A DNA stretch of 32,000 nt, from assembly GCA_965231145.1 (NCBI GenBank), contig OZ246420.1:630001-662000 (forward strand), in the 5' to 3' direction. A model generated the notes under the pieces. That model worked only from the letters and a program-made list of their open reading frames with translations. It was not told the origin of the DNA and made no database searches. How positions within the stretch are numbered: the first letter of the stretch is position 1; every line of letters starts with the position of its first letter. Positions 1-20,034 of the stretch are shown piece by piece. The position numbers were made by a program, and so were the translations under genes. This DNA is from Candidatus Saccharimonadota bacterium. Its GTDB lineage: Bacteria; Patescibacteriota; Gracilibacteria; Absconditabacterales; Absconditicoccaceae.

Positions 1-1006
1 TTTTAGATCGATCAAGTACTTTGATAATTATATTATACAACTTGTTTCTATCCTCAAGTTTATATTCAAGAATGTTTTTAATCCCTAAAAACCTATATAT
101 AAGTCTAGAGGCGAATTCTTGTTTCCATTTCCAGTCTGGTTTCTTTTGCAACCCTATACCTATAAGAGTTATCATGAGTGTATTCTGGAACAAATGGAAT
201 ATAGTATTTTGTTTATCAATATAGTCTTTCGGATCTTTCAATGTTCCAATAAATCATTTTCTATATATAGGGAATAAGTATGATGATTGGAGTGCTAAAT
301 ATCGGTAATAAGTGGCAAAGTCAGAAAGAATAGGATTATATCAAACCGTAGCAGCATCAAAGAAGCATATACTTTGATAATTTCAATTCTTAATCTTTAT
401 TGCATAATTCCAATCATGTATATCTCAATGATTTAAGGAGAATAGAGTTTCATTTATATCATATTCCATAAGTTCTAATATTTGCTTTTTATAGTTTGAA
501 CTTACTTCTTTCATATCATTCAATAGACCTTCAAAATTTTCACCATAAAAACTATATAATCTTCAATTATCCTTCCTTGTTTCGTAAAGGACTCTTAAAG
601 GGTAATTTTCAGATGAATTAAGATGGATTGAAGATTGGTGACCCTCTTTTAACTTGTCAAAAATCTGAGAATATACTTGCTCTACATATTCTACTGAAAA
701 TGTAGGATTAGCTATAAATTCAGCTCAGGTTATTCGTCACTCATCTTTTCTCTTATATTCATAAACTAACAATACTTTACCTTCCATATGGAATTGTGCC
801 TCAAGTTGAGGTAAATCAATCTTAGTTTTTGCATTATCTAAATTAACAGCTTCACTCTTTGCCTCCTCAGGAGAGAGCAATTTAAAAAAAACATCCTTTA
901 GATGAAATTGTCATTTTCAGTAAATACTATTACTTGAATATACAATTTCCTCAATCTTTATGGAAGTAGCATTCTCTATGATTTCTTTAAGATATTCACT
1001 ATTCAT
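1..1006 (-). CDS. APH/choline-kinase-family phosphotransferase (TGA=Gly translation); 3' end lies outside the window
   Basis: The minus-strand frame is open from ATG (1006-1004) to position 1 only if TGA is sense. It contains LNH-G(TGA, tca 425-427)-DIHDWN, matching the HGDxxxxN kinase catalytic loop, followed by FFDAATVGYNPILSDFA (Mg-binding Asp region). The start overlaps the stop of the upstream gene. Confidence 0.6.
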
Positions 1007-2102
1007 ATAATGTAATAAATTCTTTAAATGCATCTTTTACCATCTCTTCTTCACAATTTCTTTCGATTCAGTGTACTCCTAATCTTTTAAGTAGAATGAA
1101 GCTTAATTCTCAATTAGCACTTATTTTATCTTGTTGTAAAACATTCTTAATAGTTTCCCAACTAAGCGCTATGCGCTTATGTTGATTTGGATTTAATCAA
1201 TAAAGCCATTTTTTAACGAACTCTAATTCGGAATTCTGATAAATTTTTACAGACAAATCTAGAGACATTAATATTCCTGTCATAACCGCATCACCATGCC
1301 TTAATTTATAAACTAATGTTTCTAGTACATTTGCAAATGTGTGGCCTAACGAGAGTCCCTTATGGAGTCCAGTATTATCAAATAAATCTGGTGCAACAAA
1401 TGAATACTTCACTTCTAAAGATTCTTTAATCATACTACACCATTGTTCAAAGTTGTCGTCGTTAACTCCATCTTGAATCAAATTAAAATATTTAGTTCCT
1501 TTTTTTATAATAAAATCTGAATCTTCATATTTAATTAATAAATGTTTTATAATTTCTGAAAATCAAAGGATACGCTCAGTCAAAGGCAAATTCTTTATAT
1601 AATTAATGTTACAAAATATTACTTCAGGAGAGCGAAACAAACCAATCACATTCTTATAACTACCTAAATTTACACCAACTTTTCATATAACTGCATCACA
1701 CTGAGACATTACTGTACTCGGAACTTGATAGAATCATATTCATCTCATATACATACCTGTAGCCACCCCGACAAGGTCTCCAACATAACCTCCTCACATT
1801 GCTAAAACACAACTTTTTCTATTAAGTCCAACTGAATGAAAATATTCCAAAAGAAAATGCACAGATAATAAGTTTTTAGTTGTTGTATGAGCATCAAGTA
1901 TCATTTCTCATGCAAATTTTTCTTTTAATTCACTAGAAAATATGCTAGATATTTCTGCTCAGTTACTTGATCGAAATTGTTTATCTACTACCAATAAGAC
2001 TCTGTTATATTTAGAGTTCAATTCTGTAAGAATTTCCTTTCGTGATTCATCATTTCATATATAAATTGTCTGTTCTCAAAGCGCTATTTTTTGATTATTC
2101 AT
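999..2102 (-). CDS. 3-dehydroquinate-synthase-like sugar phosphate cyclase (367 aa with TGA=Gly)
   Basis: MNNQKIAL-G-EQTIYI-G-NDE..., VLAM-G-GGYVGDLVGVATGMYMR-G-I-G-FYQVPSTVMSQCDAVI-G-KVGVN, KNVIGLFRSPEVIF, LGHTFANVLE and LRHGDAVMTGI match the DHQS GGGxxGD / RGI / GGK / KNxxGxFxxP / GHT...HGEAV blocks. There are 12 in-frame TGA and no TAA/TAG until 999-1001. The ATG (2102-2100) overlaps the carbamoyltransferase stop. Confidence 0.75.
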
Positions 2103-3741
2103 CTCTAGTTACTATATAATTATGTAAAACCAAAACATCTATGTTTCCACAACATAAGTGTTTTAATGCATCAGCTGGATTTTCTACAATTGGCTCTTCA
2201 TTATCATTAAATGATGTATTTAATACTATTGGATATCCACATTCTTTCTCAATATTTGCTAATAGATTATAATAAAGATTATTATCATTTGCTGTGACAG
2301 TTTGTAATCTACAAGTACCGTCTACATGAATAACAGGAGAAAACAAATCCTTATATTGTTGTCTTACTTGATGTATAAACATCATAAATGGGCTATCCAT
2401 AAACACTTCGAAAAAATCTATTGCCTTGTTTGCCTGCATAGAAGCAGCAAAAGGTCTAAAACTTTCTCTATGCTTTACTTTTTCATTTATATAATCTTTC
2501 ATATGAGGAGCTAAAGGATTAGCTAATATACTCCTATATCACAATGCTCTTGCCCCACATTCAGCTCAGCTCTGAAACCGACCCACAATTTTATTTTCTG
2601 CCAAGTAAGAAGCCACTTTTGAAAGCATTTCATCTTCATTATATTTTATATATTTAATAGCTTTCTTCTTAGTAATATAAGGCAATGTAAAAATATCCTG
2701 TTTTTTATTTAAAACATCCAATATTTCCTTCTCTGAATAATCCCTTCAATAATTAACCGAAGAAACCTTTTCTCTCATATATATATCATTTTGTGCCAAA
2801 GCAGCTAGAGTATTTCATATACATTGTCATGTATCACATGTGGTAGAAGGAACATAGATCTCATCTACAATTCATTCTTGTATAAGTCTATTATTTATTA
2901 GACCGTTCAACGCAACTCCTCAAGCTAAACACAGTTTTCTGATACTAGTCTTTTTAACTAAAGCAGAAATCATTCATATAAATGCTTCTTCACACTGGAA
3001 TTGTATGTAAGACGCAAGATTAATAGCATTGTTTTTAGTTCATTTTTCAGAAATTAAATTATCATATCATAAATCTTTTAGATATGACTCAACCCCATGC
3101 TCATATTTTTCAGTTATTTTTGAGGTAATTACTCCATTCTCATCAATTGAGAATAATTCTCAACTACTTCAAAAGAAATTACCATATGCTGCTAATCACA
3201 TTGTCTTACCAGCAGATCTTGAATCTCGACCTATATAATTTGTAAAACTTTCATATGCCCTACCAATTCACATACCATTTGTAGATGAAGGATTTCATCA
3301 TATTTTCTCAATATTATTTCAGTATCAAATATAATAACTTTCTGTATCTGTACCGTTTCCAAGACCATCTACAACTACTATCAAAGCTTTTTCAAATCAT
3401 GAAAAATAATATGTATTATATGCATGAGATAAGTGATGATCTATATTCACGACATTATCTTTTTGTCATAAGAAGACAGAAAGTTTGCCCTGATATTTAT
3501 TGGGTAATGATTTATGATAGCTACTAAAGGCAAAAACATCTACATCATTTAAACTCTTATCTAATGCTTTAAGACAATATTCTAAGGCGTATAAATATCA
3601 TTCACTATGCTTTTTTCTATTTAATCTTTCCTCTGATATTGCTACACACTTATCGCCATAAATAGCACAACATCCTCAGTCATGCCCTGTATTTAACCCT
3701 ACTACTAGTTTTGGAGACGAAACTGTTTCGAATTTTAGCAT
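2095..3741 (-). CDS. carbamoyltransferase (NodU/CmcH/TobZ family), 548 aa with TGA=Gly
   Basis: The standard-code ORF 2095-2502 carries the C-terminal HVDGTCRLQTV and NTSFN..EPIV motifs. I walked the frame triplet by triplet up to ATG 3741 and found no TAA/TAG, only TGA. The N-terminus reads VVGLNTGHD-G-GCCAIYGDKCVAISEERLNRKKH, and RAL-G(TGA)-YRSILANP matches the conserved ALGNRSIL block. Confidence 0.8.
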
Positions 3742-3761
3742 AAGAATGTCTTAGTTATGAC

Positions 3762-5663
3762 TTAAATAGATTTCTCCAAGAGAATTGAAAGGAATTCAAC
3801 CATCTTTACTTTCAATATTTGAGGTCTTTTTCATACAAATTCATTCATGGCAACAATTCAATACTCTGACAAATCTATACTTGAAATCTTGGGAAAATAA
3901 CTAAACAATTTATCATATCCTTCAACATTATATCATAAAGATGCAAGATATATTTTCATGCAAGTAAAAAGGTGTTTATAAGACTCTATATCTATATAAG
4001 GATCACCATTTTTTAATTCTTCAATAGTTTGTTTATAATATAATTTTCATTTTTCCACTCTAATATTCTTTAAATCATCTTCCTTTATAGCAGGGAAAAA
4101 TATTCAGCTATTATAAATCTCTTTAATATTTCCTAAATGCACTGATCTACTTATATACGCAGTTTTTTGCTTTAGATTATCTGATACTAATTCATCTTCA
4201 TTAAGCAATGTTAATCATATTTTTACACCTTTGATGTTTCATATATCATTACGAATGAAGGATTGTATATTTTTTTTGTCAGCTAGTGTAGACGCAACTA
4301 AAACAAGATCTATATCGCTTATTTCTTGTTTAAGATCATTTCTTCCCACGCTTCATCATACTCAGATGTACTTAATATCAATTCACTGATAAGATAATAT
4401 CTTATAGCTAAGCTCCTCTATTATTTGAATATATTTATTAGGCAATCATAAATTTATTAAATTTATGGGTCAGAATATGGCATTATTAACAGATTCATAG
4501 AGATCTTCTTTAGATCCATTGTTAACAATTATGGAATCTGCAATTTCTCTTATACCATTAGTATTGAGGAGCGCTTTATCGGCATCTTTTTGCATTATTT
4601 CTTCTGTTGCCTTATCCAGTGATATATTCTTTTCTAAAGCTGTTCTTGAGATAGCATTTTGCCTATCCGTTTCAACATATAACATATGAAATCTGTCTCC
4701 TAAAAGGATTTTCATAAATCCAAAAACCTTAGGATCACGAATACTCTCAATAGAAATTTGATCTATATGGTTATGTGCTTTAGAAAATTTATGCAATTCA
4801 AGCATCAGGCGAGTCGCAAATTCTTCAGGGCTAAGCTCATCTGCATTAGGAATTAATTCATTAATTAGTTCGGCAAAATATTTGACTTTGGTCCTTACAA
4901 AACCATTGTCATGCAAATACTCTCAAACTGTACTTTTCCCCGATTCACTCATTCCTCCAATTCATACTAGTCTCTTTATATTTTCTCCTATAGGCATAAA
5001 TCTTTCCATTCCGTTATCACATAATATCCCTCTAATATCATTCTGAATATCAACTATTGGCCTAGTAACATAAATTTTATTATTTGCTGAGTTAGCAAGT
5101 TGTTTATTAATTTGATTATTAAGTATCTTCTGATATTCAATATAACGCAACCTTTCCTGAGCATTTTCCCAATTTTCAGATCTGCTTAACGTAGTGTGAA
5201 TTTGTTCATCGATATTAGTTGAGCATTGAAGGATGACCTTAATATCTTCTACATCTGAAAATTGACAATCCAATCAGCGATTACTTAACCAATTTTTAAA
5301 GTACTCTTCAGCATTTGTTTCATCTACACCTAACTTAATAGCTAGCGTACTAATAATGGTAGCAATAAAAGCTTGTAATCCTCTATCAACAATAGTCAAA
5401 TCATAGCTTTGTTTAGATAAAGCTATATCTTCATTTCTTTTTAAAACTGAATATACAAGTGTCTCTAGAAATTGATTCTCATTACCTGCTCTAAACCATT
5501 CATTTGAGTCATTTAGATTAAATTTTTTTCGCCCTGGATGATATCCTTTCAAAGACTTTAAAACATTGATCTTATAAGAGTGACCAAAAGACAAGAGTCA
5601 TATTTGACTCGTCTTCCCCATATTATCAACTCAGCTAATTGACAATGCTTTTCAGTTTTTCAT
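3762..5663 (-). CDS. three-domain fusion: thymidylate-kinase-like P-loop + second P-loop kinase + Pol-beta-type nucleotidyltransferase (633 aa with TGA=Gly)
   Basis: Standard-code ORFs 5274-5594, 4962-5273 and 4470-4916 plus the 3762-4469 segment share one frame and are separated only by TGA. Walker A 1 is ISGVDNMGKTSQ, with TIVDRG (TMK DR motif). Walker A 2 is V-G-IGGMSESGKSTV-G-EYL. The NTase motif is I-G-V-G-GSVGRND...SDIDLVLV. The ATG at 5663 overlaps the Nudix stop (TAATG). Confidence 0.6.
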
Positions 5664-6127
5664 TAAGGCGTTATTCTGACCTTATCTAAAAGCATTTGTT
5701 TTACTTGTTCTGGAGCAATTTCTTTATCCTTAATTTCATTTAAAGGTATCTCTTCTACCCTATATATGTTATCCTCATTGGTACGATCTTGTTCTGGTCA
5801 GAAAACAGGTCAAATATCTCCACTTTGGTATTCAGTTAAATATACTTTTACTTGCTCTTTAACTCCTCCGAAATCATCATTCCATTCATCAAGCTTTCTA
5901 ATTACCTTAACTTTCATTCCAGACTCCTCAGTTACTTCTCTTTCTAAAGTATCAATATCTGTTTCACCATCTTCTTGTCCTCCTCAAAGCGTAACATAAT
6001 ATTCTCTACCTTTCTTTTTTCTATACATCAAAAGTGTAGAAAATAGCTCTCCACTTACTTTTTTCACAATTATTGCACGGATGGTAACTCTGTCTGGTTT
6101 TTCAGAAATATTTTCAATCTTATCCAT
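5663..6127 (-). CDS. Nudix hydrolase (154 aa with TGA=Gly)
   Basis: The Nudix box L-G(TGA, tca 5984-5986)-GGQEDGETDIDTLEREVTEESGM matches GX5EX7REUXEEXGU. The frame is open from ATG 6127 to TAA 5665-5663. Confidence 0.8.
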
Positions 6128-6209
6128 ATTGGTGAAATAATATAGAATAAATCTCATATATCATAGATATATGAAAAGAAAAGTCAACTCTTTAAACAAG
6201 ATACGCAAA

Positions 6210-6237
6210 TTGACATGTCTTTCAACAACTATAATAT
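6210..6237 (+). promoter_or_regulatory. sigma70-like promoter candidate (TTGACA-N16-TAATAT) in the divergent intergenic region
   Basis: TTGACA lies at 6210-6215 and TAATAT at 6232-6237 (a TATAAT also sits at 6230-6235), about 45 nt upstream of the 6280 start. This is a pattern match only. Confidence 0.25.
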
Positions 6238-6279
6238 ACAGAAACAGCTACCCTATTTATAAAATATCCTATAATTTTA

Positions 6280-6954
6280 ATGATGGATGATAATAATTTA
6301 ACAGAACAAGAGTTATCATATATAGATGTAATTGTTAAGTGGATTAAAGAACAAGGTAAATTAGATAATGACAATCTGATGCTTTTGCGTGATTGAATTT
6401 CTGCCTTAAAGGCAAATTTATTTTTTTCTGCAGCATCAGTTTTCTTAGTCCATTTAGAGAAGCACTTAAGGACTACCCTAGTTATGATTTTAATGAAAAA
6501 GAAAGATCAGCCTCTAGAAAGGTTTATGAATATATTAGAGGAAACGGAAGAACAAATTGAGAATGAAACTGATGGCAAAAAGTATAGATTTAATAATCTA
6601 TGTAAGGAATTATTTAATTTATGATATATTGGAGAGCAAACAAAAAATAAATTACTGCATATGTATGAACATTTTAGAAATCCTGTTCAACACTGAATTT
6701 ATTGAAGATTAATGAAATATAATTATTGAAATGTTCAAATACCGATGGTAGCAGGAGATCTTTGAGAGAATGCCACCGCAGAAGACTTGAAAAACATGCT
6801 AGAAGCAATAGTTACAGCCATTCCAAATTCAACTTCATGAATACATAATCCAATAATAAGAATATTTAAGTTGCCTCAATTAATGAAAGACATCTCTTTT
6901 GACTTATTAACTTTAACAAAAGAGGTTATTGAGGAAATAAATATTAAGTTATAA
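6280..6954 (+). CDS. hypothetical protein with HEPN-like Rx4H motif (224 aa with TGA=Gly)
   Basis: The frame runs ATG 6280 to TAA 6952-6954 with 7 in-frame TGA. The motif MYEHF-RNPVQH-G (Gly encoded by TGA) resembles the RNxxxHG signature of HEPN ribonuclease families. Confidence 0.5.
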
Positions 6955-6986
6955 TGTATTAAGTTTTTGTCTTTTAAAGCTCAAAA

Positions 6987-8312
6987 ATGGGATTTAAACA
7001 AGAAATAATAGATGCTGTTTGAGAAGGTGTATATAATAAATTAAATGATTTGGCATGAAGCGAGGTAGGTGCAGCGATGCAAATGCCATTAATTGTTGAT
7101 CATAGGGATAATTATTATACTCCTAAATATCTTGTCCCATCCCTTTTGAAAGAATTTGAGTTATTTGAAAAGAAATGATTAAAGGTTGTGCCTACTGATA
7201 TAATAGAGATTTTATTCAAGTGTAGATTACTATTTGCAGTACAAAATCATATTGAATACAGGCAAAGAGCTGGCAGCATGGGATCAATTCACGATGAAAA
7301 TGGGTTCATCATATTACGAGAAAAAAAGGCTTTAGGCTTAGATGCACTCGTTGAGGAATATTTAGATAGATTAAAAGGCTTTCAGAAGGAAAGAACCCTA
7401 ATTGCTCCTATCAATTCTTTTAGGGATAGAGAATGAGGTGTTCAAGCTTTGCTTGATATACTATTCGAGCAATTAAATCTACCTTTTAAAGCATATATAC
7501 AAGAAGACAGATTAATAGAGGTATATAAGTCATTTTACCAAACAGATGAGAATCCAAGCAAAGAAAATCTTGAAAGATTTTGTAACTTCCCAGCGATTTG
7601 ATACACGGAAACATGAAGTTATATGTATTGTTATTGGCAAGGGATAACATATTTGAGAACTTTTATAAATTTATTAAAAATTGCAGGATTTTTAAATCCC
7701 GCACAAATAGAATTTGATATAAATGATATTCAGATAGCAGCACCTACTTGACCTGTATTTCTAGGCTCTAATTCGCGTTGATGATATGCCTGGTCAGAAG
7801 ATATAAAAAACACTTGGCAGAAGATCCCCGATGGATGCTTATGGAGATCCTTTGGTTATAGATGAATCTCTAAGCTACGATTAGATGGAAGAAACTACAG
7901 TAAAATAGAAAAGTTTTTTATGGAAAATAAGTGGATATTCGATTTAATTAAAAACCCTCGAAATAAACATCATTTGCAAGAAATTGCACCAACCTTAGAC
8001 ATTTTAAGTTCATCAACTCATACCCAAGATCAGTGAGCAAAAATTCTATTAATTTATTGCTCCCTTGAGCATTTATTTGTTCCAAAAGGCATAGATACTA
8101 ACAATAAAACTTATATTGTAGGAGGAATTAATGCTTTAAATCCTGATTTACTAGATTGGTTTCGAAAATTATATGAATTAAGGTGCTCTTATGCACATAA
8201 ATGATTTATTCCTTATACGGATCAACTAATTGGCTTGGTTATAAAATCCGTTGGAAATGCAATGTTGTTGCTTTCTAATAAGATTAGCAATAAAAACCTT
8301 AATGATATTTAA
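6987..8312 (+). CDS. hypothetical protein with C-terminal HEPN-like domain (441 aa with TGA=Gly)
   Basis: The frame runs ATG 6987 to TAA 8310-8312 and contains standard-code ORF 7188-7436 in the same frame. The C-terminus reads ILLIYCSLEHLF ... LYEL-RCSYAH-K-G(TGA), i.e. a helix with a conserved Glu plus Rx4H, as in Apea/RiboL-PSP-type HEPN domains. Confidence 0.5.
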
Positions 8313-8329
8313 TATTTCCCTCTATTCTT

Positions 8330-8890
8330 ATGCAATCTCAAACAATATCCTCTTATTTAGAAATTGCATACAGAACTAAAGTTAAATGACTTATTTTAAA
8401 AACACTACATACTGATAATAGGTTATTGAACTTTGCTTATTTTATGCATGAATCTATTATAGAAAGTTTTTATGTAAATCTTGGATCATTGTTTGATAGA
8501 AGATGAGATACTATTGGATTAAACTTTACTTCGCAACATTCTATGCAAGAAGTTCAGTTTTTTACTGATGAATGGGGTCAAACTATCCAAAAGGTTATAA
8601 ATAAAAGAAATAATCTTATAGCACATAGGAATAAAGGAATTTATGAAAATCCTTCTGAAAATGAGCCAGAATATATTAAAGATAATCGCACTACAACTAA
8701 TGAATTACTTGAAATGATTGATGATCTTATTGTAGTATGTGAAGGTATAATGCCTGAACTACATCAAAATAAAGATCAATATGAACAATTATGGTGATAC
8801 CTAGAAAGTCCTTTTCTAGTAAAGCTCTTAGATAATATAAAACACAGTGAAATTGATCTTATTGAAAGCTATTTTAAAAGTATATGATAG
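8330..8890 (+). CDS. hypothetical protein with AbiU2-like HEPN motif (186 aa with TGA=Gly)
   Basis: The frame runs ATG 8330 to TAG 8888-8890 and contains ORF 8543-8797 in frame. The motif is VINK-RNNLIAH-RNKG (Rx4H). Confidence 0.5.
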
Positions 8891-9000
8891 AGAATATTTT
8901 GGTAATTTTCAGAGAGTATTTTGCTACTAATATGCTATTTTTGTGTGATTTTTTTTAAGGATAATATACTATTTATTAAGGATTTTTTTGAGCAAAAAAT

Positions 9001-9028
9001 AAAGATTGGCTTATGATAGCCAATCTTT
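9001..9028. terminator. bidirectional intrinsic terminator between convergent genes
   Basis: An 11-bp perfect stem (aaagattggct / agccaatcttt) with a 6-nt loop is flanked by an A-run on the left and a T-rich run on the right. It sits between the 8330-8890(+) and 9035-9439(-) genes. Confidence 0.6.
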
Positions 9029-9034
9029 TAAAAA

Positions 9035-9439
9035 TTACTGCATTAATTGATTAATTCTTGCTGTATTTAAATCATTTATAGCTTTATCCGAATTTGATTG
9101 AGCTATACTTGTATCAATCGGGCAATTCTGAACTTGTGTTAAATATGTTACTTCTCTGTTATTTTTATCCCTGGTGTCTGTCAGTTGAGACTTCCATTCA
9201 TTATACCCAGAAAGATTAATTTTCTCTTGGTTATAGGCGGTTTTTAAGCCATCCAGTTGGCTATTAATAATAACAATGTTGTTTACTAACTCATTAATCC
9301 TTGCACTGCATTCTTTCTTAGCTTCTGCACTCATTCATAGAGATTTCTCTAAGCCAAGATCACCTCTATATAAATAAATCACTAAGCCCAGCATTGAGAT
9401 ACCAATTACTAATACTAAGATATAAAAAGCTTTTTTCAT
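9035..9439 (-). CDS. N-terminally membrane-anchored Gln/Asn-rich protein (134 aa with TGA=Gly)
   Basis: ATG 9439 gives MKKAFYILVLVIGISMLGLVIYLY (a TM/signal anchor). The frame then passes one TGA into ORF 9035-9334 and ends at TAA. Confidence 0.55.
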
Positions 9440-9499
9440 GGAAAGAAAATGAAATAATAAAAAAGAAGCGTATTCCTACTCTTCAAACCATAAGCTTTA

Positions 9500-9960
9500 T
9501 ATAACTAATAATGGGACGGCTTATGACTCTCGGATTGCTACACCCTTACACCTACACGCCGGTTTAGGACGATAAGTGGAGAAATCACAAACCGCCCCTC
9601 TATTAAACCAGAGGTGTAGAAATTGTAAGAGTGTAGCATGTATAAATTACATATTAGGTCCTATTTTTTCAACCACATATCTTAAATGGAATTTAGCTTG
9701 AAAATCAGTATAATACATATGATTTGTTCTCGCAATAAAACCAAGTAATTTTATATGAAGCAGCCCTCGCGTTAAAGTATAGAGAATAACTAAAGCGTAA
9801 GCTACAAGTCCGCTGGGCAGTAATAGAAGTAACCTATATACATAGGTTCTATTGTTGCTGTCACAAAAGGGCTTACATGAATGATGCTAGATTAGGAAGT
9901 GTTCTCATGCGTATGCTTGAGATACTACTCAAGGGATCGTCGGACGAACCTGATCAAAAA
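9500..9960. ncRNA. candidate structured RNA(s); identity unresolved
   Basis: All six frames are closed by TAA/TAG even when TGA is allowed. The stretch is locally more GC-rich than neighbouring coding DNA. It holds nested helices: 9538-9560 pairs with about 9612-9636, enclosing cggttt/aaaccg and cctct/agagg hairpins. Further perfect hairpins are aacctat/ataggtt (about 9831-9848), cttgag/ctcaag (about 9915-9932) and cgtc/gacg. Confidence 0.25.
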
Positions 9961-10055
9961 GAAGGAGATTAATATCTTCTTCTTTTTATATTTACTTAAA
10001 TGTTCGATCTACTATTATAATTTATAAAACCTTATTTTATTTTCGAACAACAACC

Positions 10056-11818
10056 ATGGAATATATCATATATTGTCGTAAATCAACAGATGAAAGCGCT
10101 GATAGACAGGTTCAATCTATACCTGATCAAATGAAGGAATGCATGGAGTTTGCAGAAAAAAATGGATACATAGTTTCAAAGAAACCCAAAGATTTCTCAT
10201 TTTTTGAAACCCCAGATGAAATTAAAAAACAAAACGAAGATGAGAGTGCATATAGTAGGGAAATTTATAAGAAATACAGATCTTTATTTATTGTAAAAGA
10301 ACAAAAGACTGCAAAAGAGCCATGAGTAAGGAAAAAACGAGCTTTACTAATGAAAATGGTTGTGGATGGTAAAATAAAGTGAATTATTAGTTATCATCCT
10401 GATAGACAAGCAAGAAATATGGAAGATTGATGACATTTAATTACCTTGGTGGACAAATGATTATTAGATTTAAAATATCCTAGATTTCATTTTGAACCCA
10501 CACCAACAGGCAAGATGATGCTTTGATTTTTATTCGTTTTTGCAAAAAACTATACTGACACAACTTCGACACAACTTCAGGAAACGTATTAAGAGGAATG
10601 GAATCTAGTATAGCTAGAGGTAAGGCTATCGGCAAATATAAGTATTGATATATAATCAATGATGAAGGCTATCACGTACCTGATGGCAAGAATTTTGAAC
10701 TTATGAAACAAGCATTTCATATGAAACTTTATGAAGAGAAAACTAATGAAAGTATATGAAAATGGCTCATTTCTAGAGGTTTTGAGAAAGCCAACAAGAA
10801 GAAAATTGATTGGAAAAACTTTTCAAGAATATGGAAAGATCCATTTTATTATGGACTTTATATTAATGGGAATGCAAGTAGTGATCTAAACATAAGCAAT
10901 CCCTACTTCCGCCCTTTGATAAGCGAAGAAGAATATACTATTCTCGTAGAAAGACTTAATAATGATACCAATTGAAAAGCAAAAGACACCAGAAATGAAA
11001 ATGAAGAAGTAAATCCCATTCCAAAAGGACTGATTAAAACGACTGATTGAAAGATCTTATCACATGACTTTCCTAATAAAAACACTAGACATAAGCCAAA
11101 CTTAGATAAACTTAAAAAGACAAATCTTAGTGCAACATATGCTGATGTAGTCCTTCCAAAACATATTTGGTATAAAACCACGAAAGTAAAAGATAGAAAT
11201 TGAAAGCAATTAATAGTAAATTATGCTGATATTGAAAAGTTAATACTTTGATTATTAGAGTCTATGACAATTTCCCCTGATAAGTATGAATTATATCAAA
11301 ATTACATGAAAGATGCCTATGAACAAGAACAACTCTTAAAAGCTGAAAAGATACATGTAATTGAAAATCAAAGACGTTTAATTCAATGAAAGCTTAATGA
11401 ATATGTCAAAAAAAACCTATGAAATGCCAGGTCTGCATTAGAAGAAAAAGTATATCAGACGTGATTAAAGGAAAAGCAGGATAGTATTGACCTATTAGAT
11501 GAAGAATTGCTCAATCTTAAAAATGATGAAAGAAATTATATTGCTGAGTTCACTGTTTTCATGTGAGTGTTCCAAAACATGGCATCCAGATTTAAGAAAC
11601 TCAATTATGTTCGAAAAAGAGAATTTATAAAAATTTTCGTTTCGAACATAGAAATTAGCCGTAGTAGAAAAATCACAATCACGACTTTCCCTTATATTGA
11701 TGCCCTTTTTGAGCGTAAAATTTCAAAAACAAAAAATAACCACCCGAAAGCGGTCATTTTTGGAGCGGACGACGAGACTCGAACTCGCAACCAACTGCTT
11801 GGAAGGCAGTGACTCTAG
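10056..11818 (+). pseudogene. large serine recombinase, frameshifted by an 11-bp tandem duplication (TGA=Gly)
   Basis: The N-terminus MEYIIYCRKSTDESADRQVQSIPDQ is the resolvase catalytic Ser region, followed by HPDRQARN and GKMML-G-FLFVFAKNYTD. The frame then changes (0 to 2) at 10557-10578 and frame 0 stops at TAA 10590-10592. Removing one repeat copy restores ...NYTDTTSGNVLRGMESSIARGKAIGKYKYGY... through to TAG 11816-11818. Confidence 0.75.
10557..10578 (+). repeat. perfect tandem duplication gacacaacttc x2 inside the recombinase gene
   Basis: GACACAACTTC at 10557-10567 is repeated exactly at 10568-10578. The 11-nt gain accounts for the +2 frameshift. Confidence 0.9.
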
Positions 11819-11837
11819 CCAATTGAGTTACATCCGC
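11761..11837 (-). tRNA. tRNA-Gly (anticodon UCC), CCA encoded
   Basis: The sequence folds as a cloverleaf by hand: acceptor GCGGATG/CGTCCGC, anticodon arm ACTGC-CTTCCAA-GCAGT, T arm GCGAG-TTCGAGT-CTCGT. It is 77 nt long. Confidence 0.85.
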
Positions 11838-11924
11838 ATTATTAATGTAGTGATGATATTTCTCCTCTCGGAGTATTTTCCATAATAGAGATTCTCTTTC
11901 GAAAATCAAGTATATTTGGAAAAA

Positions 11925-11942
11925 ATGGTGGGCCTAACTGGA
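11925..11942. repeat. island-distal att repeat: orphan copy of the last 17 nt of tRNA(CAU) plus 1 nt
   Basis: atggtgggcctaactgga is identical to 29182-29199. No tRNA body is attached on this side. Confidence 0.85.
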
Positions 11943-12054
11943 ACCACTATATTATGTTATAGCTCCAATAATAGTCATAATAAGTGTGCGTAACTAGCCT
12001 GATTGACACTTTCAGGATATTCAAACAAGAAAGAAAATCAAGCCATATTCTGTA

Positions 12055-12336
12055 TCAATCAAAACCTTCACTAAAAAACTCTTCTATTGTCATGTCAAAG
12101 GCTTTTATAATTCTGAGAAGGGTTGTGTATTGTATATCCGATGCACCACGTTCATAGCGGCCATATTGTACGCGGCCAATTTTATTTTCGTAGGCAAATA
12201 TTTCATGGCTAGAATGGCTACGTAAGCGTAATTGCCTTAATCTATCTCCCAGTTTCTTTAAGTCGTCTGGTATCTCTTTGCTCTTCGTCTTCTTTCCACT
12301 TTCCTTTTTCATAAAGCGAAAATTATAATGTACCAT
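12055..12336 (-). CDS. XRE-family helix-turn-helix transcriptional regulator
   Basis: This is a 93-aa ORF. LGDRLRQLRLRSHSSHEIFAYENKIGRVQYGRYERGASDIQYTTLLRIIKAFDMTIEEFF is a typical HTH_3/XRE fold pattern. The gene ends in TGA. Confidence 0.7.
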   Translation of the reverse strand: MVHYNFRFMKKESGKKTKSKEIPDDLKKLGDRLRQLRLRSHSSHEIFAYENKIGRVQYGRYERGASDIQYTTLLRIIKAFDMTIEEFFSEGFD

Positions 12337-12349
12337 ACTACTATGGTAC
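12330..12349. promoter_or_regulatory. palindromic operator candidate overlapping the XRE gene start
   Basis: gtaccata-ctac-tatggtac has perfect 8-bp arms and covers the ATG (12336-12334) of the XRE regulator, within the divergent intergenic region. Confidence 0.3.
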
Positions 12350-12437
12350 GTCTATAAAGAAACATCTGAATAGAAACATCTAATTAGGTTCATTATTAAA
12401 AATTATCAGTATTATTGTGGACTAAACATTTTTCGAC

Positions 12438-12923
12438 ATGAGAACCATTTTATCCTTTGCATTTGCGATTGTGTGTATACAAACACACGCACAAAAATTA
12501 TCACAGAGTGAGGTTGGACGGTACGCTAAAAACTTTGCCTATAGGATGTATAATACAGAGCCATGCTATGGAGACAAACACACCGGCTTCAATTTTAATA
12601 TCCTTACATGGAAAGCAATTAGAGGTAATAGTGGCTCATATTTCTACGCTGTAAAAGTTGAAGCGACATGGAAAGAAGGGATGGGCGGCATATGGGGTGA
12701 CTGGAAAGATTATGTGTACAAAGGCATTATGGTCTTCGATGGCTACGGTTGTAACCCTGTATTCTTTATCACAGAGAAAAAAGAGTTTACCATTTTAGGC
12801 GTGAATAAGAGATCTCGTGAACTAGACCCGGGCTTAAAAACTGCCATGATTGAAGGCGACCCTTCTTGGTTTAAAAATATCAAATGGGGTTGGCAACCGA
12901 GCGGCTGCTTAAGTGATAACTAA
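12438..12923 (+). CDS. secreted hypothetical protein
   Basis: This is a 161-aa ORF with the N-terminal signal peptide MRTILSFAFAIVCIQTHAQ. It has no in-frame TGA and a TAA stop. Confidence 0.6.
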   Translation: MRTILSFAFAIVCIQTHAQKLSQSEVGRYAKNFAYRMYNTEPCYGDKHTGFNFNILTWKAIRGNSGSYFYAVKVEATWKEGMGGIWGDWKDYVYKGIMVFDGYGCNPVFFITEKKEFTILGVNKRSRELDPGLKTAMIEGDPSWFKNIKWGWQPSGCLSDN

Positions 12924-12931
12924 AACAAAGG

Positions 12932-13342
12932 ATGATGAAGGGAATTTTACTTTTAGCTGCTGTGCTTATTGCTACCGTTGCCAAAGCTCAACAAGTCACA
13001 TTGAATTATGCTCGTCAGCATGGGTATAAAATCATAAAGCAACCCAATAAAGGGCATTTGGATATAGAGGTAAGCGAAGAATATCATAACCTTATTACCA
13101 TCCATACAAACCGCCTACAAGCTTCATGTGACAGTAATTATGAACTAAAGATGATTACAGGAACTGGCAGGGTGAAGACAAGCAAAAACTGCAGGGATTA
13201 TAGCATGGGAACCATGGTTAATAAAGACTTTCCGGCCACGGTAAAAATTAAGTTTAGAGATAAGGAAGGCGATTGGGTGGAGTTTACTGTGAAACTGCTC
13301 TACGCCGGGTTTAGATATAGGGTTGACTTATTTCGTAATTGA
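12932..13342 (+). CDS. secreted hypothetical protein
   Basis: This is a 136-aa ORF with the signal peptide MMKGILLLAAVLIATVAKAQQ. It starts 9 nt after the previous gene and has a TGA stop. Confidence 0.6.
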   Translation: MMKGILLLAAVLIATVAKAQQVTLNYARQHGYKIIKQPNKGHLDIEVSEEYHNLITIHTNRLQASCDSNYELKMITGTGRVKTSKNCRDYSMGTMVNKDFPATVKIKFRDKEGDWVEFTVKLLYAGFRYRVDLFRN

Positions 13343-13354
13343 GGATATTTCTTT

Positions 13355-14530
13355 TCAATTTCTATCGATAAAGTTTAGCCAATCTATAACTTCATGAATA
13401 GGCAAGTTTATTACCGGCCCGGCCCATCCCGATGCCAAAAAACCCACCGGAAAAGAACCAGGAACGAAGTATAAAAGCAGCATATCTGCTTGTTTCATTT
13501 TAGGAGCCGTTACTGATTTAAATCTGTTCACAAATTCTACATGTTGCTTTTCATCTTTAAATTCTAGGGCTTTTATTTCAATTTTGCTTTTCATGAAATC
13601 TTCTATCGTTTCATGTTGATCTATCTTATCAATGTTAGAGGGGTATCCTTCAAAAAACGATTCTATTATATCGTCCTTCATAACCTCATGATAATGTAAA
13701 TTCGCGATAGTCAGCATATTTGATGTGTAGATGGTCAGCTTATCGAATGTTGTATTTAGTAAAAATTCTCCTCTTATTTGTGATGCAACTTTCGTCCCAG
13801 AGCCTTCAAGTAGAATAATGATAGCCTCACTAACTTTATGCGTATTAATATTTATCCATTTTTCATAATCATCATCAACTAGTGTCGTTGGAAGCATAAG
13901 AATACTATTCTTAACATTGTTAAGATGTTCTCCAAACATACTCGGGACATTATAAAAATATTCGGAGAAATAACTTGTAAATCGAGACGGTTTTGACACT
14001 TTAAAACTGTCAGGCTGCCTAATGAATAATTCAACTACTTTATCGATATTTTGCTTCTCTATTTCCTTCACCAAGCCGTCAAGCACATTCATGTGAAAAA
14101 AGTTTTGTTCGAAAAACGGTTTAAACAACATCGCATAACTACTGTTAGCTTTTGCTAAGTCCTGGCAAGTTTGAAATAGTGCTTCACAATAGATTTTATT
14201 TTTTTCCTCTTGAGACAAGATTTTCTTTGTTTTTTCTTGATGTGTATTTACGGCATCGTTGCATTTACTGTCCGTATGCGAAGTGAGATAAAGCATAGAC
14301 ACTATTCCTTCCAAACTATACGTATCCCCTTCATCTGTAAAAAATGCCTTATAAAGGCTATATGCCTTTGATATATGAAATATGGCATTAGCTTTTTCAA
14401 AAGCTAATATATAGCTGGGTTTTATGTCTGTTTTTAAAGCTAAGTCTTTATAACTCCACCCCCGCTGTTCTCGAGCACGTCGAAACACAATACCGAGACA
14501 AATCGAAAAGACATTTCTAATTTCCTTCAT
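13355..14530 (-). CDS. hypothetical protein with N-terminal XRE-like HTH
   Basis: This is a 391-aa ORF. RRAREQRGWSYKDLALKTDIKPSYILAFEKANA looks like an HTH; the rest is unrecognised. It has a TGA stop. Confidence 0.55.
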   Translation of the reverse strand: MKEIRNVFSICLGIVFRRAREQRGWSYKDLALKTDIKPSYILAFEKANAIFHISKAYSLYKAFFTDEGDTYSLEGIVSMLYLTSHTDSKCNDAVNTHQEKTKKILSQEEKNKIYCEALFQTCQDLAKANSSYAMLFKPFFEQNFFHMNVLDGLVKEIEKQNIDKVVELFIRQPDSFKVSKPSRFTSYFSEYFYNVPSMFGEHLNNVKNSILMLPTTLVDDDYEKWININTHKVSEAIIILLEGSGTKVASQIRGEFLLNTTFDKLTIYTSNMLTIANLHYHEVMKDDIIESFFEGYPSNIDKIDQHETIEDFMKSKIEIKALEFKDEKQHVEFVNRFKSVTAPKMKQADMLLLYFVPGSFPVGFLASGWAGPVINLPIHEVIDWLNFIDRN

Positions 14531-14868
14531 GCAGTAAAATTACACGTATTCGTATTTTTACCCAAATTCATTCGTTATTTATATTTATACACTATAGCCG
14601 TTATTTTTTTTACCTCCTATTTTAAATGTTTTTCTTTTTGTGTTATGTTATCTCTTATCTTTGTTTTACCAAAAAAAACGGATGAAGTAGAATACCCCAC
14701 CCGCTGCATATAAAAGCTACCAACTTTTATATACGGCGCACCCGGAAAAAACGGTTTCCGACTACTTCGCAAAACAGACCCTCAACAAATCTGTCTCACG
14801 CATAAATATTGTAACAATATAAATGTGTAAGTCAAGGTGAGTTGAGGTACAAAACAGAACCTCGACGT

Positions 14869-15087
14869 ATGGAACACCTACACTCAATTGTCGCTCAACT
14901 GAAAGAGCTTGGCTATGGAGCCGACATCTATAAGGTTGAAAATTCATGGTATAATGACGGAGTTCCATTATCTAACCCGCAAGAGGTGTTACATTGTTCG
15001 TGGTATAGTCCAGCCCTAAAAAAGAAAATTTCAGTCTATCGCATTTCCAATGCCACAATAAAAGGAGTTGCAATATCCATAACGTAA
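14869..15087 (+). CDS. small hypothetical protein
   Basis: The ORF track gives 14842-15087. The first ATG is at 14869 (MEHLHSIVAQLKELGYG...), and a strong terminator follows directly. Confidence 0.45.
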   Translation: MEHLHSIVAQLKELGYGADIYKVENSWYNDGVPLSNPQEVLHCSWYSPALKKKISVYRISNATIKGVAISIT

Positions 15088-15114
15088 GAGGGAGCATTTT
15101 AGCTCCCTTTTTTA
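15088..15114 (+). terminator. rho-independent terminator
   Basis: gggagc-atttta-gctccc is followed by tttttt immediately after the 15087 stop. Confidence 0.7.
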
Positions 15115-15250
15115 TTGTCCATACAAAAAGGTTCTTCACAACAAAACACTTGATAATGAGAATAAAGTATGCTGCAAAAACTCGACCACCGCCACACAGA
15201 ATTGTTCACATGCAGAAATATTATTCTCTCCGTATTTAAAACCAAACAAA

Positions 15251-15949
15251 ATGAAAAAACACAATCTACTATTTGCACTAATTATGCTCACGCTTTCATG
15301 CGGCATAGAATCCACACAACACCCAGGTACAGAACAACAGGCGACTACTACGCAAAACAAAACAACCCAAATAGTGTTCATAGCAGACCGTAGTCGGTCC
15401 TTCGTCAAAAAGTACGACCACCCCTCACCGGAACTTTTTAAACCACTCTGTGATAAGATAGTTTCCAGCGGCTGCACACTCGACTTTCGCTATGGTTGTA
15501 TATTCTCCAGCAGCGACCAAGTGCTAGATAGGTACTATGTACCCTACACGCCAGAAGAGAAAAATCAGGGATCGAGCAACCCTTGGCTTGCAAGTGAAAC
15601 GAAGAAGAAAAAAGCCACAGCCCCACTGGCTGACACATGGAGCAATTTTGCGACTTCCGTAAATGAAAAGCTTGCATTGCCCCCATCGAATGGCAGCGAT
15701 ATTAACTCTGCGGTCGGACACGCTCTTTTATCGTTTCAGGAGGGAAAGGCTACCCGCAAAATTCTCTTTCTCTGCACCGATGGAGAAGACAGCAGGGGGC
15801 AACTCCCCTCTATTGGTTCAGACATCGAAGTGATAACCGTGGGACTCTTAGAAGAAAATCACTTAGAGCAGGCTCTCAACACAAACAACGTTAAACACTT
15901 TGAAAACATCCATTCCGCAATTGAATATCTCTATTCGCAAACCTTCTAA
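15251..15949 (+). CDS. von Willebrand factor A (vWA) domain lipoprotein
   Basis: MKKHNLLFALIMLTLSCG is a lipoprotein-type signal with Cys. IVFIADRSRSF is a MIDAS DxSxS motif, and ILFLCTDGEDS is the vWA TDG motif. Confidence 0.6.
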   Translation: MKKHNLLFALIMLTLSCGIESTQHPGTEQQATTTQNKTTQIVFIADRSRSFVKKYDHPSPELFKPLCDKIVSSGCTLDFRYGCIFSSSDQVLDRYYVPYTPEEKNQGSSNPWLASETKKKKATAPLADTWSNFATSVNEKLALPPSNGSDINSAVGHALLSFQEGKATRKILFLCTDGEDSRGQLPSIGSDIEVITVGLLEENHLEQALNTNNVKHFENIHSAIEYLYSQTF

Positions 15950-15959
15950 AATAAATTTT

Positions 15960-16796
15960 ATGACAACAAAGAAACAAACGCTTCAAAGCCACATCATTGA
16001 ACAGATAATAAGCGGTATCGTAAAAATTACAGACAAAATATTTGATCTCTATAGCCAGGCTGCAAAGTGGCACGAAAAAAGCGACATGCTGGAATTTGAA
16101 AACAGGCACACAAATAAAGCAAATACAATGAAAAAAACTGGATGGTTTTTCTTGCTCTTTATTCTAATGCCTCTTATTGCTTGTCTCGACTACACCAGCG
16201 TAGCGTCATTCATAGATTATCTAGCGAAACAAAATGGCGGCATGATTGGCACTTTCATTCAGTTTATAGGGGTCTTTTTCTTCCTATTGATTGAAATCGG
16301 GTTGGGATGGTTCCTCGCTTCTTCTAAAGACAAACCATTGCGTAGGCTATTAGCCATATTGTGCGCAACAATAGTCACCGTGGCACCAAGTGGCTTGGTG
16401 TATGTTACCTACTATATCAACCCGGAAAAAACACAGCTTCTGTTTGTCAAAACACTGGTGCTTATGATTATTTCCATTCTCCTGCATGCACTGATATTTC
16501 TTCTCATTGACGAAATATGGGCTGGCATCCTATTCTATAAGTATCGCCTCAAACGATGGCTACACGATAAAGAGAACCCAGCTAAGCTCATTTCTATAGA
16601 GAAAAGTAAGCTACAAAAAGAGTTCATTGATTTTGATGTGTATGTCGTGGAAGAAAGCGATAACGGAGCACGTCACCTCTACAATAATCGAGCGTGGTAT
16701 TTGAAGGAAAAATTCAAAAAGGGGGACATCGAACACGAAACCGATTTGTCGGACTACAACCCTAATACTTCTTACGCCCCTTCTATTCATTCGTAA
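15960..16796 (+). CDS. multi-pass membrane protein
   Basis: The track ORF 15900-16796 overlaps the previous gene, and an in-frame ATG lies at 15960. Hydrophobic segments include WFFLLFILMPLIACL, GVFFFLLIEIGLGWFLA, LLAILCATIVTVAPSGLVYV and LVLMIISILLHALIFLLI. Confidence 0.55.
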   Translation: MTTKKQTLQSHIIEQIISGIVKITDKIFDLYSQAAKWHEKSDMLEFENRHTNKANTMKKTGWFFLLFILMPLIACLDYTSVASFIDYLAKQNGGMIGTFIQFIGVFFFLLIEIGLGWFLASSKDKPLRRLLAILCATIVTVAPSGLVYVTYYINPEKTQLLFVKTLVLMIISILLHALIFLLIDEIWAGILFYKYRLKRWLHDKENPAKLISIEKSKLQKEFIDFDVYVVEESDNGARHLYNNRAWYLKEKFKKGDIEHETDLSDYNPNTSYAPSIHS

Positions 16797-16806
16797 AAGC
16801 ACACTC

Positions 16807-17344: not shown

Positions 17345-17377
17345 TCTGCTCTTGCAACAACCCAAAATTTTTATAGT

Positions 17378-20015: not shown

Positions 20016-20034
20016 TCCTACTAAATACGAGATC

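Follow-up and report, generated by a model that had tools for sequence, protein, structure and literature searches.

Why should a bacterium with a variant genetic code keep, in a single operon, a gene resembling that of 3-dehydroquinate synthase (DHQS, the AroB enzyme of the shikimate pathway) next to genes for a carbamoyltransferase, kinases, a nucleotidyltransferase and a Nudix hydrolase? The question is raised by positions 1-6127 of a 32,000-nt stretch of DNA (contig OZ246420.1, positions 630,001-662,000), which is referred to below, as a whole, as the window. We argue that the DHQS-like protein, g2, is by its sequence not the shikimate enzyme AroB and forms part of a separate clade, and that a multi-enzyme cassette travels with this clade across phyla and across two domains of life. 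As to what the cassette makes, a cyclitol or carbasugar is our tentative answer. The literature on this gene combination, and on DHQS in the candidate phyla radiation (CPR), was searched and no description of the cassette was found.

The operon becomes visible only when the code is changed. With table 11, positions 1-6127 contain nothing but short, broken open reading frames (ORFs). With TGA as a sense codon, ORF cover (ORFs of at least 100 aa, overlapping frames counted) rose about twofold, from 19.3 kb to 40.1 kb, and the retranslation with table 25 that the first-pass annotation of this DNA had proposed gave five clean, long minus-strand ORFs within 1-6127. When g2 and the neighbouring g3 were aligned with standard-code homologues, glycine was the majority residue in 19 of the 34 in-frame TGA columns and tryptophan in none of them (0/34); glycines of the GGGxxGD NAD motif of g2 are among those encoded by TGA. 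By this comparison TGA is glycine and not tryptophan, which corresponds to code 25 (Gracilibacteria/Absconditabacteria). The five genes in the window are as follows.

g1, 2..1033 within the window, cut by the left window edge, minus strand: small-molecule kinase of the aminoglycoside phosphotransferase (APH)/choline kinase type (protein-kinase-like fold)
g2, 999..2102, minus strand: DHQS-derived, sugar-phosphate-cyclase-like enzyme of a new clade
g3, 2095..3741, minus strand: O-carbamoyltransferase of the TobZ/NodU/CmcH type (Kae1-like and YrdC-like domains)
g4, 3762..5663, minus strand: 633-aa fusion of two domains with the nucleoside monophosphate (NMP) kinase fold and a nucleotidyltransferase resembling aminoglycoside nucleotidyltransferases (ANT-like)
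g5, 5663..6127, minus strand: MutT/NudG-like Nudix hydrolase, first gene of the operon, with an alternative upstream ATG at 6157

The DHQS-like cyclase

The protein g2 matches the Pfam families DHQ_synthase (96 bits, 1.4e-27) and DHQS_C (65.4 bits, 7.1e-18), and its closest sequences in the PDB are genuine DHQS (about 1e-35), which rank above DOIS, EEVS and DDGS (the synthases of 2-deoxy-scyllo-inosose, 2-epi-5-epi-valiolone and desmethyl-4-deoxygadusol, respectively). With AroB (EC 4.2.3.4) it shares the fold, both Pfam domains and about 30-35% identity, but it reached only 206 bits against the TIGR01357 aroB equivalog model, whose cut-off is 305. The NAD motif GGGxxGD and the zinc ligands (E183, H254 and H269 in g2) are conserved, and the residues that g2 has in common with canonical DHQS are R120, D136, K141, N151, E183, K186, K232, H254, H269 and K326. 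In DHQS numbering, the clade of g2 and DHQS share the metal ligands, K197, K250, D146 and the phosphate-pocket residues K152, N162, K356 and R130.

The differences are concentrated elsewhere. Where canonical DHQS has GHT.GH..E, g2 reads GHTFANVLE, and its homologues at 31-38% identity share the longer pattern HK.LS.GHT.(A/S)N.LE, in contrast to R..LN.GHT.GH..E in canonical enzymes. H247, S251 and N258 of g2 stand in place of R264, N268 and H275 (Aspergillus nidulans DHQS numbering); in addition, one residue is deleted before K152 (GGK to GK). In a column comparison H/S/N was invariant among 23 clade members and R/N/H was present in 100% of 29 canonical sequences; four further positions (M132, V142, D242 and A257) were specific to the clade. 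In DHQS the three replaced residues bind the carboxylate or phosphate of the substrate 3-deoxy-D-arabino-heptulosonate 7-phosphate (DAHP) or relay a proton, the last being the role of H275 (PMC7144000). Other cyclases of the superfamily, for which reference sequences of DOIS, EEVS, DDGS and amino-DHQS were taken from the supplement of PMC4426668, carry the following residues at DHQS positions 264/268/275.

DHQS and amino-DHQS: R / N / H
DOIS (BtrC): G / E / H, the Glu being E243 of BtrC
EEVS (ValA): R / D / P
DDGS: D / A / P
g2 clade: H / S / N

The enzymes DOIS (BtrC), EEVS (ValA), DDGS and amino-DHQS (RifG) thus resemble g2 in that they belong to the same superfamily, have the same three positions changed for substrates other than DAHP and likewise sit in tailoring gene clusters; they differ from it in the residues themselves. 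In a neighbour-joining tree of 62 sequences the g2 clade was monophyletic (bootstrap 97/100) and nested among bacterial DHQS, apart from BtrC, ValA/EEVS, DDGS and RifG. The EEVS and DDGS sequences occupied a branch of their own, and BtrC lay elsewhere than the g2 clade. The first-pass annotation had taken GHTFANVLE, in place of the GHTFGHAIE of Escherichia coli AroB, as a sign of a non-canonical cyclase, and had suggested that the enzyme be placed among DHQS, DOIS, EEVS, DDGS and amino-DHQS. The suspicion was well founded, given the clade, the fingerprint, the TIGR01357 score and the gene neighbours, and the placement gave a distinct clade with a fingerprint that matches none of these classes.

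Since the metal, phosphate and NAD residues are conserved and those at 264, 268 and 275 replaced, the g2 clade appears to have kept the machinery for redox chemistry and phosphate elimination while the residues that recognise DAHP were exchanged, which makes a phospho-lyase or cyclase activity of g2 plausible. That g2 is nothing more than a divergent AroB of the usual kind, working in the synthesis of aromatic amino acids, might be proposed from the ranking of genuine DHQS as the closest solved structures and from the preserved metal, NAD and phosphate residues. We find this scarcely conceivable. The score lies under the equivalog cut-off, three DAHP-specific or catalytic residues are invariantly replaced, the clade is separate, and no shikimate gene was found nearby in 27 of 27 clade loci (described below), whose surroundings hold Nudix, kinase and nucleotidyltransferase genes in place of aro genes; an aroK-like neighbour was present in 0/27 of these loci as compared with 16/58 canonical aroB loci. 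It also counts against an ordinary AroB that, to our knowledge, the host lineages generally lack amino-acid biosynthesis.

The cassette around the cyclase

Context look-ups and one scan of GTDB species genomes provided 27 loci with a cyclase of the g2 clade (one pair being redundant), and a gene was counted as a partner if it lay within 6 kb of the cyclase. A Nudix gene was present in 23 of the 27 loci, a nucleotidyltransferase in 21 and the second kinase domain of g4 (Kin2) in 18; a TMK-like domain (resembling thymidylate kinase) and an APH-like kinase were each found in 11, and a nucleoside diphosphate kinase (NDK) and a carbamoyltransferase each in seven. In most of the loci that have them, the TMK-like domain or the NDK is fused to Kin2. 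Essentially none of these partners accompanied the 58 canonical aroB loci obtained from the same GTDB scan, apart from one, L032, which is itself a further cassette locus. The carbamoyltransferase matches seen beside canonical aroB were left out of account, as they are TsaD-like proteins (about 340 aa). The partners are joined in many alternative ways (Nudix-nucleotidyltransferase, Nudix-APH, Nudix-glycosyltransferase, NDK-Kin2, TMK-Kin2, Nudix-TMK-Kin2 and TMK-Kin2-nucleotidyltransferase), which argues that the cassette functions as one unit.

The first-pass annotation had proposed that its interpretation be abandoned if the neighbours did not co-occur in related genomes. A relative with 77% identity has the same gene order, and distant relatives have the same partners. 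It had also considered such chemistry unexpected in reduced lineages, an expectation that our survey contradicts, because the cassette occurs mainly in the reduced genomes of Patescibacteria/CPR and DPANN archaea. The hosts of the 27 loci are mostly Patescibacteria/CPR (Paceibacterota, Levybacteria, Nomurabacteria, Saccharibacteria, Berkelbacteria and Falkowbacteria), joined by two DPANN archaea and a few metagenome-assembled genomes (MAGs) labelled Proteobacteria. Some loci carry additional genes. A phosphatase of the haloacid dehalogenase (HAD) type is present in a subset (L014, L020, L024 and L025), and in the loci that we call type A a family 2 glycosyltransferase (GT2) is fused to the Nudix domain. 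In the DPANN loci there are also a methyltransferase, a P-loop protein resembling HPr kinase and a TIM barrel like that of xylose isomerase, the latter accompanying Nudix in both (L026 and L030).

The locus L032 (5168-14457 of a 282-kb contig with a GC content of 36%) comes from a Hadza gut MAG labelled Alphaproteobacteria. It contains genes for a Nudix protein, a 196-aa ORF, a carbamoyltransferase, the cyclase and an APH-like kinase, with a nucleotidyltransferase and Kin2 nearby; its cyclase has the motif variant QKKLSLGHTIAN, of the pattern QK.LS..GHT.AN. MAGs labelled Gammaproteobacteria also carry the cassette (L016, L024 and L028). In view of L032, the cassette may not be confined to CPR and DPANN, as far as labels that rest on MAG binning allow.

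The fusion protein of the cassette in the window, g4, has almost no Pfam signal, and its domains were therefore resolved by comparison with relatives.

g4 domain 1, 5019..5663 (about aa 1-215), minus strand: TMK-like P-loop kinase with the NMP-kinase fold
g4 domain 2 (Kin2), 4464..4991 (about aa 225-400), minus strand: second P-loop kinase, related to UPF0200/AdkA and dephospho-CoA kinase
g4 domain 3, 3762..4463 (about aa 401-633), minus strand: Pol-beta-type nucleotidyltransferase with a helical C-domain, resembling AadA, ANT(9) and the kanamycin nucleotidyltransferase KNTase

Structural comparisons were made with an AlphaFold model of P0023, a homologue of the same architecture that is 25% identical to the window protein (predicted local distance difference test, pLDDT, 82.6). 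The first domain has the P-loop GxDxxGKT and an invariant DRG motif. Its similarity to thymidylate kinase structures is weak and limited to the P-loop region (E = 0.012), and the Pfam scan of g4 found no TMK family match and no Thymidylate_kin signature beyond the P-loop. In the model of P0023 the domain adopts the NMP-kinase fold, and in type-A loci NDK occupies the position of this domain. The profile of Kin2 matched the adenylate-kinase-related protein SSO1041 (PDB 3lw7/3h0k, 1e-11) and dephospho-CoA kinase (8e-6), and Foldseek aligned this domain of the model to 3lw7/3h0k with template modelling (TM) scores of 0.62-0.70. Taken together, the kinase domains of P0023 recovered SSO1041, UMP/CMP kinases, adenylate kinases, dephospho-CoA kinase and phosphomevalonate kinase. 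An origin of Kin2 and the cyclase in an aroK-aroB pair was considered and rejected, as shikimate kinases ranked well below adenylate and UMP/CMP kinases in Foldseek and were absent from the profile matches of Kin2.

In the third domain, the motif GS...SDIDL is invariant in the family alignment, and the profile matched an MNT-like nucleotidyltransferase (6.6e-5) and KNTase (1.2e-3). The C-terminal part of the P0023 model resembled AAD(9) (6sxj) and AadA (5lpa/6fzb) with a TM score of about 0.55 over approximately 270 columns. Modelling of the homologue thus indicates a Pol-beta nucleotidyltransferase core followed by an ANT-like helical C-domain. The likeness to AadA/ANT(3'')(9), ANT(9) and KNTase (ANT(4')) extends to the combination of a Pol-beta domain, a helical bundle and GS...DxD in the homologue model; it ends with the fusion to two kinase domains or to Nudix and with scores far under the curated cut-offs. 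NCBIfam gave ANT(4')-Ia 18.2 bits (cut-off 500) and ANT(4')-I 15.6 bits (cut-off 350), so that g4 does not reach the scores of resistance enzymes.

The assignments of the remaining genes differ in firmness; all five labels of the first-pass annotation are essentially right, with "TMK-like" and "APH-like" being the least secure. The truncated window copy of g1 (344 aa) had no Pfam match, while its full-length orthologue in L001 (51% identical) just passed the threshold of Pfam APH (23.8 bits against 23.2). Three of the 11 members of this family match Pfam APH, and the family profile gave nothing significant against PDB sequences; the AlphaFold2 model, built from three sequences only, had a pLDDT of 35.8. 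The family alignment shows invariant K51, E61, D205, N210 and D227, i.e. the catalytic pattern of kinases. Both domains of g3 are well over their cut-offs (Carbam_trans_N: 113.6 bits, 1.7e-32, cut-off 24; Carbam_trans_C: 200.3 bits, 2.2e-59, cut-off 27), which is the likeness to TobZ, NodU and CmcH, and the HHLSH and DG motifs of the metal site, as known from TobZ, are visible in its sequence. The difference from these enzymes is that g3 remains far below the NodU equivalog cut-off (144.6 bits against 1000) and that a carbamoyltransferase belongs to the cassette in only the seven loci mentioned. Orthologues of g3 lie directly upstream of the cyclase in L009, L014, L019, L020, L024 and L032. 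The assignment of g5 is based on PF00293 (36 bits, cut-off 21.1), on the visible Nudix box G-x5-E-x7-REVxEExG and on the family profile, for which MutT and NudG structures were closest (MutT/NUDIX 3id9, 2e-14; CTP pyrophosphohydrolase 2rrk, 3e-12).

A related operon was also defined in Actinobacteria (Kitasatospora, Kribbella alba and others). It has the same triple fusion of TMK-like domain, Kin2 and nucleotidyltransferase, after which there invariably come a member of the same APH-like kinase family, an oxidoreductase of the short-chain dehydrogenase/reductase (SDR) family and the same MutT-like Nudix. Neither a cyclase nor a carbamoyltransferase was found in the actinobacterial operons L091 to L094, one of which (L093) contains in addition two genes of the inositol monophosphatase (IMPase)/CysQ family and a radical SAM enzyme. 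The SDR in the place of the cyclase and the IMPase-family genes at one locus would fit a polyol drawn from the cellular pool; thus, an SDR acting on the cell's own polyol, such as inositol, might replace the cyclase. The Actinobacteria offer cultivable, genetically tractable hosts in which the function of the core module can be approached. The loci are as follows.

L091, 10001-14284: actinobacterial operon
L092, 10001-13634: actinobacterial operon
L093, 8001-12976: actinobacterial operon
L094, 8001-12263: actinobacterial operon

Possible products of the cassette

The interpretation towards which we lean, tentatively, is that the cassette is self-contained and that its enzymes build a cyclitol or carbasugar, which is then phosphorylated, nucleotidylated and carbamoylated. 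The cyclase would act on a sugar phosphate, though not on DAHP, and by transient oxidation with NAD+ and beta-elimination of phosphate would yield a keto-cyclitol or carbasugar; this product would be phosphorylated by the APH-like and P-loop kinases. The nucleotidyltransferase would join this product to a nucleotide, giving an NMP- or nucleoside diphosphate (NDP)-linked cyclitol, while the carbamoyltransferase would O-carbamoylate a hydroxyl group. The Nudix enzymes might cleave the pyrophosphate or a nucleoside triphosphate (NTP)-type linkage, serving turnover, proofreading or release. In other lineages, with HAD and GT2 added, the route could run in full from kinase to phosphatase, nucleotidyltransferase and glycosyltransferase, and the end product may serve as a secreted effector, as a solute or, where type-A loci supply a GT2, to decorate the surface. 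As regards a cyclitol in particular, this interpretation is based on the resemblance of the nucleotidyltransferase model to the adenylyltransferases of spectinomycin and streptomycin, whose targets are hydroxyls of aminocyclitols or sugars, on the APH-like kinase, on the relatives with a HAD phosphatase, GT2 and a xylose-isomerase-like TIM barrel, and on the actinobacterial operons, with an SDR where the cyclase would be and, at one locus, IMPase-family genes.

In the biosynthesis of acarbose and validamycin, the NDP-valienol branch comprises a cyclase, C7-cyclitol kinases, a HAD phosphatase, a nucleotidyltransferase and a pseudo-glycosyltransferase. The same succession of enzyme classes is found across the cassette loci (at least two kinases, with HAD and GT2 in subsets). 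The enzymes themselves are of different kinds, the kinases of the cassette being APH-like or of the NMP-kinase fold and not of the ROK type, its nucleotidyltransferase Pol-beta/AadA-like and not GlgC-like, and its glycosyltransferase GT2 and not GT20-like; furthermore, the cassette adds Nudix and carbamoyltransferase, and is hosted by CPR and DPANN in place of actinomycetes. A second related system is the ebo cluster (PMC5133447), which is reported to combine a DHQS-like cyclase (EboD), a nucleotide pyrophosphatase (EboF) and a xylose-isomerase-like TIM barrel (EboE), comparable to L026 and L030. The cassette differs from it in having neither the UbiA prenyltransferase nor TatD, and in having Nudix instead of a pyrophosphatase of the alkaline phosphatase family.

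Several observations weigh against the synthesis of a cyclitol or carbasugar. We infer every one of its chemical steps. The two domains with the NMP-kinase fold, the NDK of type-A loci and the MutT/NudG-like Nudix point at least as strongly to nucleotide substrates, and the existence of the actinobacterial operon means that the core of kinases, nucleotidyltransferase and Nudix needs no cyclase. The conserved HK at the position of R264 could, from its sequence, bind an anionic group, which would make an ulosonate-like substrate possible. The cassette often lies in variable or island-like regions, which would also fit a role in defence or resistance. Finally, the clade is rare: about 50 clusters (at 50% identity) with the clade motif were present among the best 150 of 12,245 DHQS-superfamily proteins found at E < 1e-30 in a profile search of 1.84 billion representatives.

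The main rival to the cyclitol interpretation is a pathway that makes or salvages a non-canonical nucleotide, e.g. an antiviral or antimetabolite analogue, as viperin does together with a kinase. An unusual NMP would be converted to the NTP by the NMP-kinase-fold domains and NDK; the MutT-like Nudix would keep the pool in check, the nucleotidyltransferase would consume the NTP, and the DHQS-like enzyme (the SDR in Actinobacteria) would act on the sugar moiety, or on a precursor of it, through NAD-dependent oxidation and elimination of phosphate. The kinases are what makes this attractive, namely the NDK fused to Kin2 in type-A loci, the matches of Kin2 to an AMP-bound adenylate-kinase-related protein and to UMP/CMP and adenylate kinases, and the TMK-like first domain of g4, together with a Nudix closest to MutT and CTP pyrophosphohydrolase. 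A patchy spread and island-like settings near a HEPN_AbiU2-like gene, recombinases, and STAND, HerA or DUF4365 genes would suit such a role too. A weak match of Nudix to the candidate PDC-S07 (1.8e-7) in PADLOC-DB v2 points the same way. However, no other cassette protein matched a defence system in that search, a scan of IMG/VR with the clade profile found no viral copy of the cyclase, none of the loci examined has a base-attaching or base-modifying enzyme (a phosphoribosyltransferase, for example), the cyclase keeps a DHQS pocket of the size of DAHP with most binding residues unchanged, and partners such as GT2, HAD and carbamoyltransferase accord better with the chemistry of sugars or cyclitols; on balance we consider this pathway rather unlikely. 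We regard as quite unlikely, and below it, a specific form in which CPR and DPANN make a carbocyclic or non-canonical nucleotide-like antimetabolite or antiviral compound, with a sugar mimic made by the cyclase, a cascade of kinase, NMP kinase and NDK, an AadA-like nucleotidyltransferase and Nudix as a safety valve. A 3'-phospho-NDP-X donor resembling 3'-phosphoadenosine 5'-phosphosulfate (PAPS) or O-methyl phosphoramidate (MeOPN) is retained as a sub-variant, on the basis of the kinase resembling dephospho-CoA kinase and the IMPase/CysQ genes at one locus. Salvage of CoA, suggested by a kinase, an adenylyltransferase and a kinase resembling dephospho-CoA kinase in one fusion, was rejected, since it would leave unexplained the cyclase, the carbamoyltransferase and the APH-like kinase, as well as the fusion in Actinobacteria that already make CoA.

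The resemblances to antibiotic-related enzymes lead to two further explanations. The ANT-like nucleotidyltransferase and APH-like kinase, aided by the P-loop kinases, might inactivate an incoming aminocyclitol- or aminoglycoside-like toxin or provide self-protection, as would accord with the fold match to AadA/ANT(9), the weak ANT(4') match, the APH-family signature, the mobile or patchy gene sets and the presence of the kinase/nucleotidyltransferase/APH-like/Nudix core in Actinobacteria. Such a role is improbable, because it leaves the linked cyclase, the carbamoyltransferase, the two Nudix genes and the HAD and GT2 partners unexplained, and all curated resistance models were far under their cut-offs (18 as compared with 500 bits). 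Still less credible, and indeed largely refuted by gene content already, is a gene cluster that makes an aminoglycoside or aminocyclitol through an entry step of the DOIS or EEVS type and TobZ-type tailoring. A DHQS-superfamily cyclase with an APH-like kinase, a carbamoyltransferase of the TobZ/NodU type and an ANT-like nucleotidyltransferase as neighbours does recall one, and the first-pass annotation had accordingly spoken of aminocyclitol/aminoglycoside or activated-cyclitol pathways. The activated cyclitol fits the enzyme classes (cyclase, kinases and AadA-like nucleotidyltransferase, with HAD and GT2 in relatives). The other half of that proposal fared badly: neither the operon nor the related loci examined contain an aminotransferase, without which an aminoglycoside pathway is unsupported, nor an inosamine dehydrogenase or an aminoglycoside-type glycosyltransferase, and both the H/S/N fingerprint and the position of the clade in the tree set g2 apart from DOIS, EEVS and DDGS.

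Patescibacteria/CPR and DPANN pass for metabolically minimal organisms, which have seldom been credited with specialised small-molecule chemistry. If the product of the cassette is a cyclitol or carbasugar derivative, it would represent a sixth functional class in a superfamily that already yields aminoglycosides, acarbose and sunscreens, and would provide a handle on the interaction of episymbionts with hosts, rivals or phages. The function is directly testable, since the genes encode small, soluble-looking enzymes that need only the recoding of TGA to GGN before expression.

Layout and setting of the operon

The chaining of five minus-strand genes by overlapping or nearly abutting ends, as described in the first-pass annotation, was confirmed by direct reading under code 25; g4 and g3 are separated by a gap of 20 nt. 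The stop codon of g5 and the start codon of g4 form TAATG (5665-5661), and the junction of g3 and g2 reads ATGAATAA, an overlap of 8 nt (2102-2095). The stop codon of g2 lies at 999-1001, so that the overlap with g1 amounts to 8 nt for a start at 1006, as in the first-pass annotation, and to 35 nt for one at 1033, which is the choice of the public gene calls on the contigs L001 and L090. The prediction that the operon extends past position 1 also held, modestly. On L090, a public 46-kb contig that is 100% identical to window positions 1-15663, g1 ends at 366 aa and is followed by a gene for a 128-aa Nudix protein and then by a strand change. The operon consists of six genes, five of which are in the window, the last being this second small Nudix. 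The same gene order, including the second Nudix, is found on L001, whose proteins are 51-77% identical to those of the window. Upstream of g5 lies one further feature.

6160..6187, minus strand: TTGACT-16-TATGAT, a promoter-like site that lies upstream of g5 between the divergent genes and is the best minus-strand match (10/12 positions)

Taken over the whole region, promoter-like sites showed no enrichment (38 as against 43.8 expected), and this site is therefore a positional hint only.

Public gene calls for code-25 contigs read TGA as tryptophan (code 4), as was seen for P0072, P0001, P0020 and P0021. The deposited proteins show W at conserved glycine positions (e.g. WWGYVGD and HKWLSLGH), and apparent identity is lowered as a consequence: P0020, which is g4 as deposited for the contig L090, is only 97% identical although the DNA is 100% identical. 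Family models built from such mistranslated proteins could be misled.

The operon sits in a stretch of 30% GC, with a weakly HEPN_AbiU2-like gene upstream and a serine recombinase abutting a tRNA-Gly gene. Three plus-strand genes (6280-8890; 224, 441 and 186 aa) are divergent from the operon. The third has a weak match to HEPN_AbiU2 (abortive infection) that is below the cut-off (8.6e-5), the other two are without a family assignment, and a comparison of all three with PADLOC gave no match. The large serine recombinase (10056-11837) is split into two frames (Resolvase domain, 10056-10592; Recombinase domain, 10598-11818), and the 3' end of the Recombinase ORF overlaps the gene of tRNA-Gly(TCC) at 11761-11837 on the opposite strand. 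The coincidence of the split recombinase and tRNA-Gly with a shift in GC content from about 30% to 36-42% looks like an island boundary.

Beyond it, the ORFs of region 12438-26808 (GC 38-45%) contain 0-1 in-frame TGA each and all end in TAA or TAG, whereas the ORFs flanking this region on both sides use TGA for glycine heavily. It encodes, at 17727-19190, a coupling protein of a type IV secretion system, at 21030-22268 a tyrosine integrase of Bacteroidota style, and at 22329-26108 a restriction-modification fusion of 1259 aa. The region looks like a mobile element inside a code-25 genome that either came recently from a standard-code donor or avoids TGA.

No tRNA with the anticodon UCA, the expected reader of TGA as glycine, was found in the window. 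The window does contain ten minus-strand tRNA genes between 29183 and 31547, namely tRNA-Met (29183-29259) and a group of nine (30270-31547) specific for Glu, Asp, Thr, Val, Asn, Leu, Gln (two genes) and again Met.

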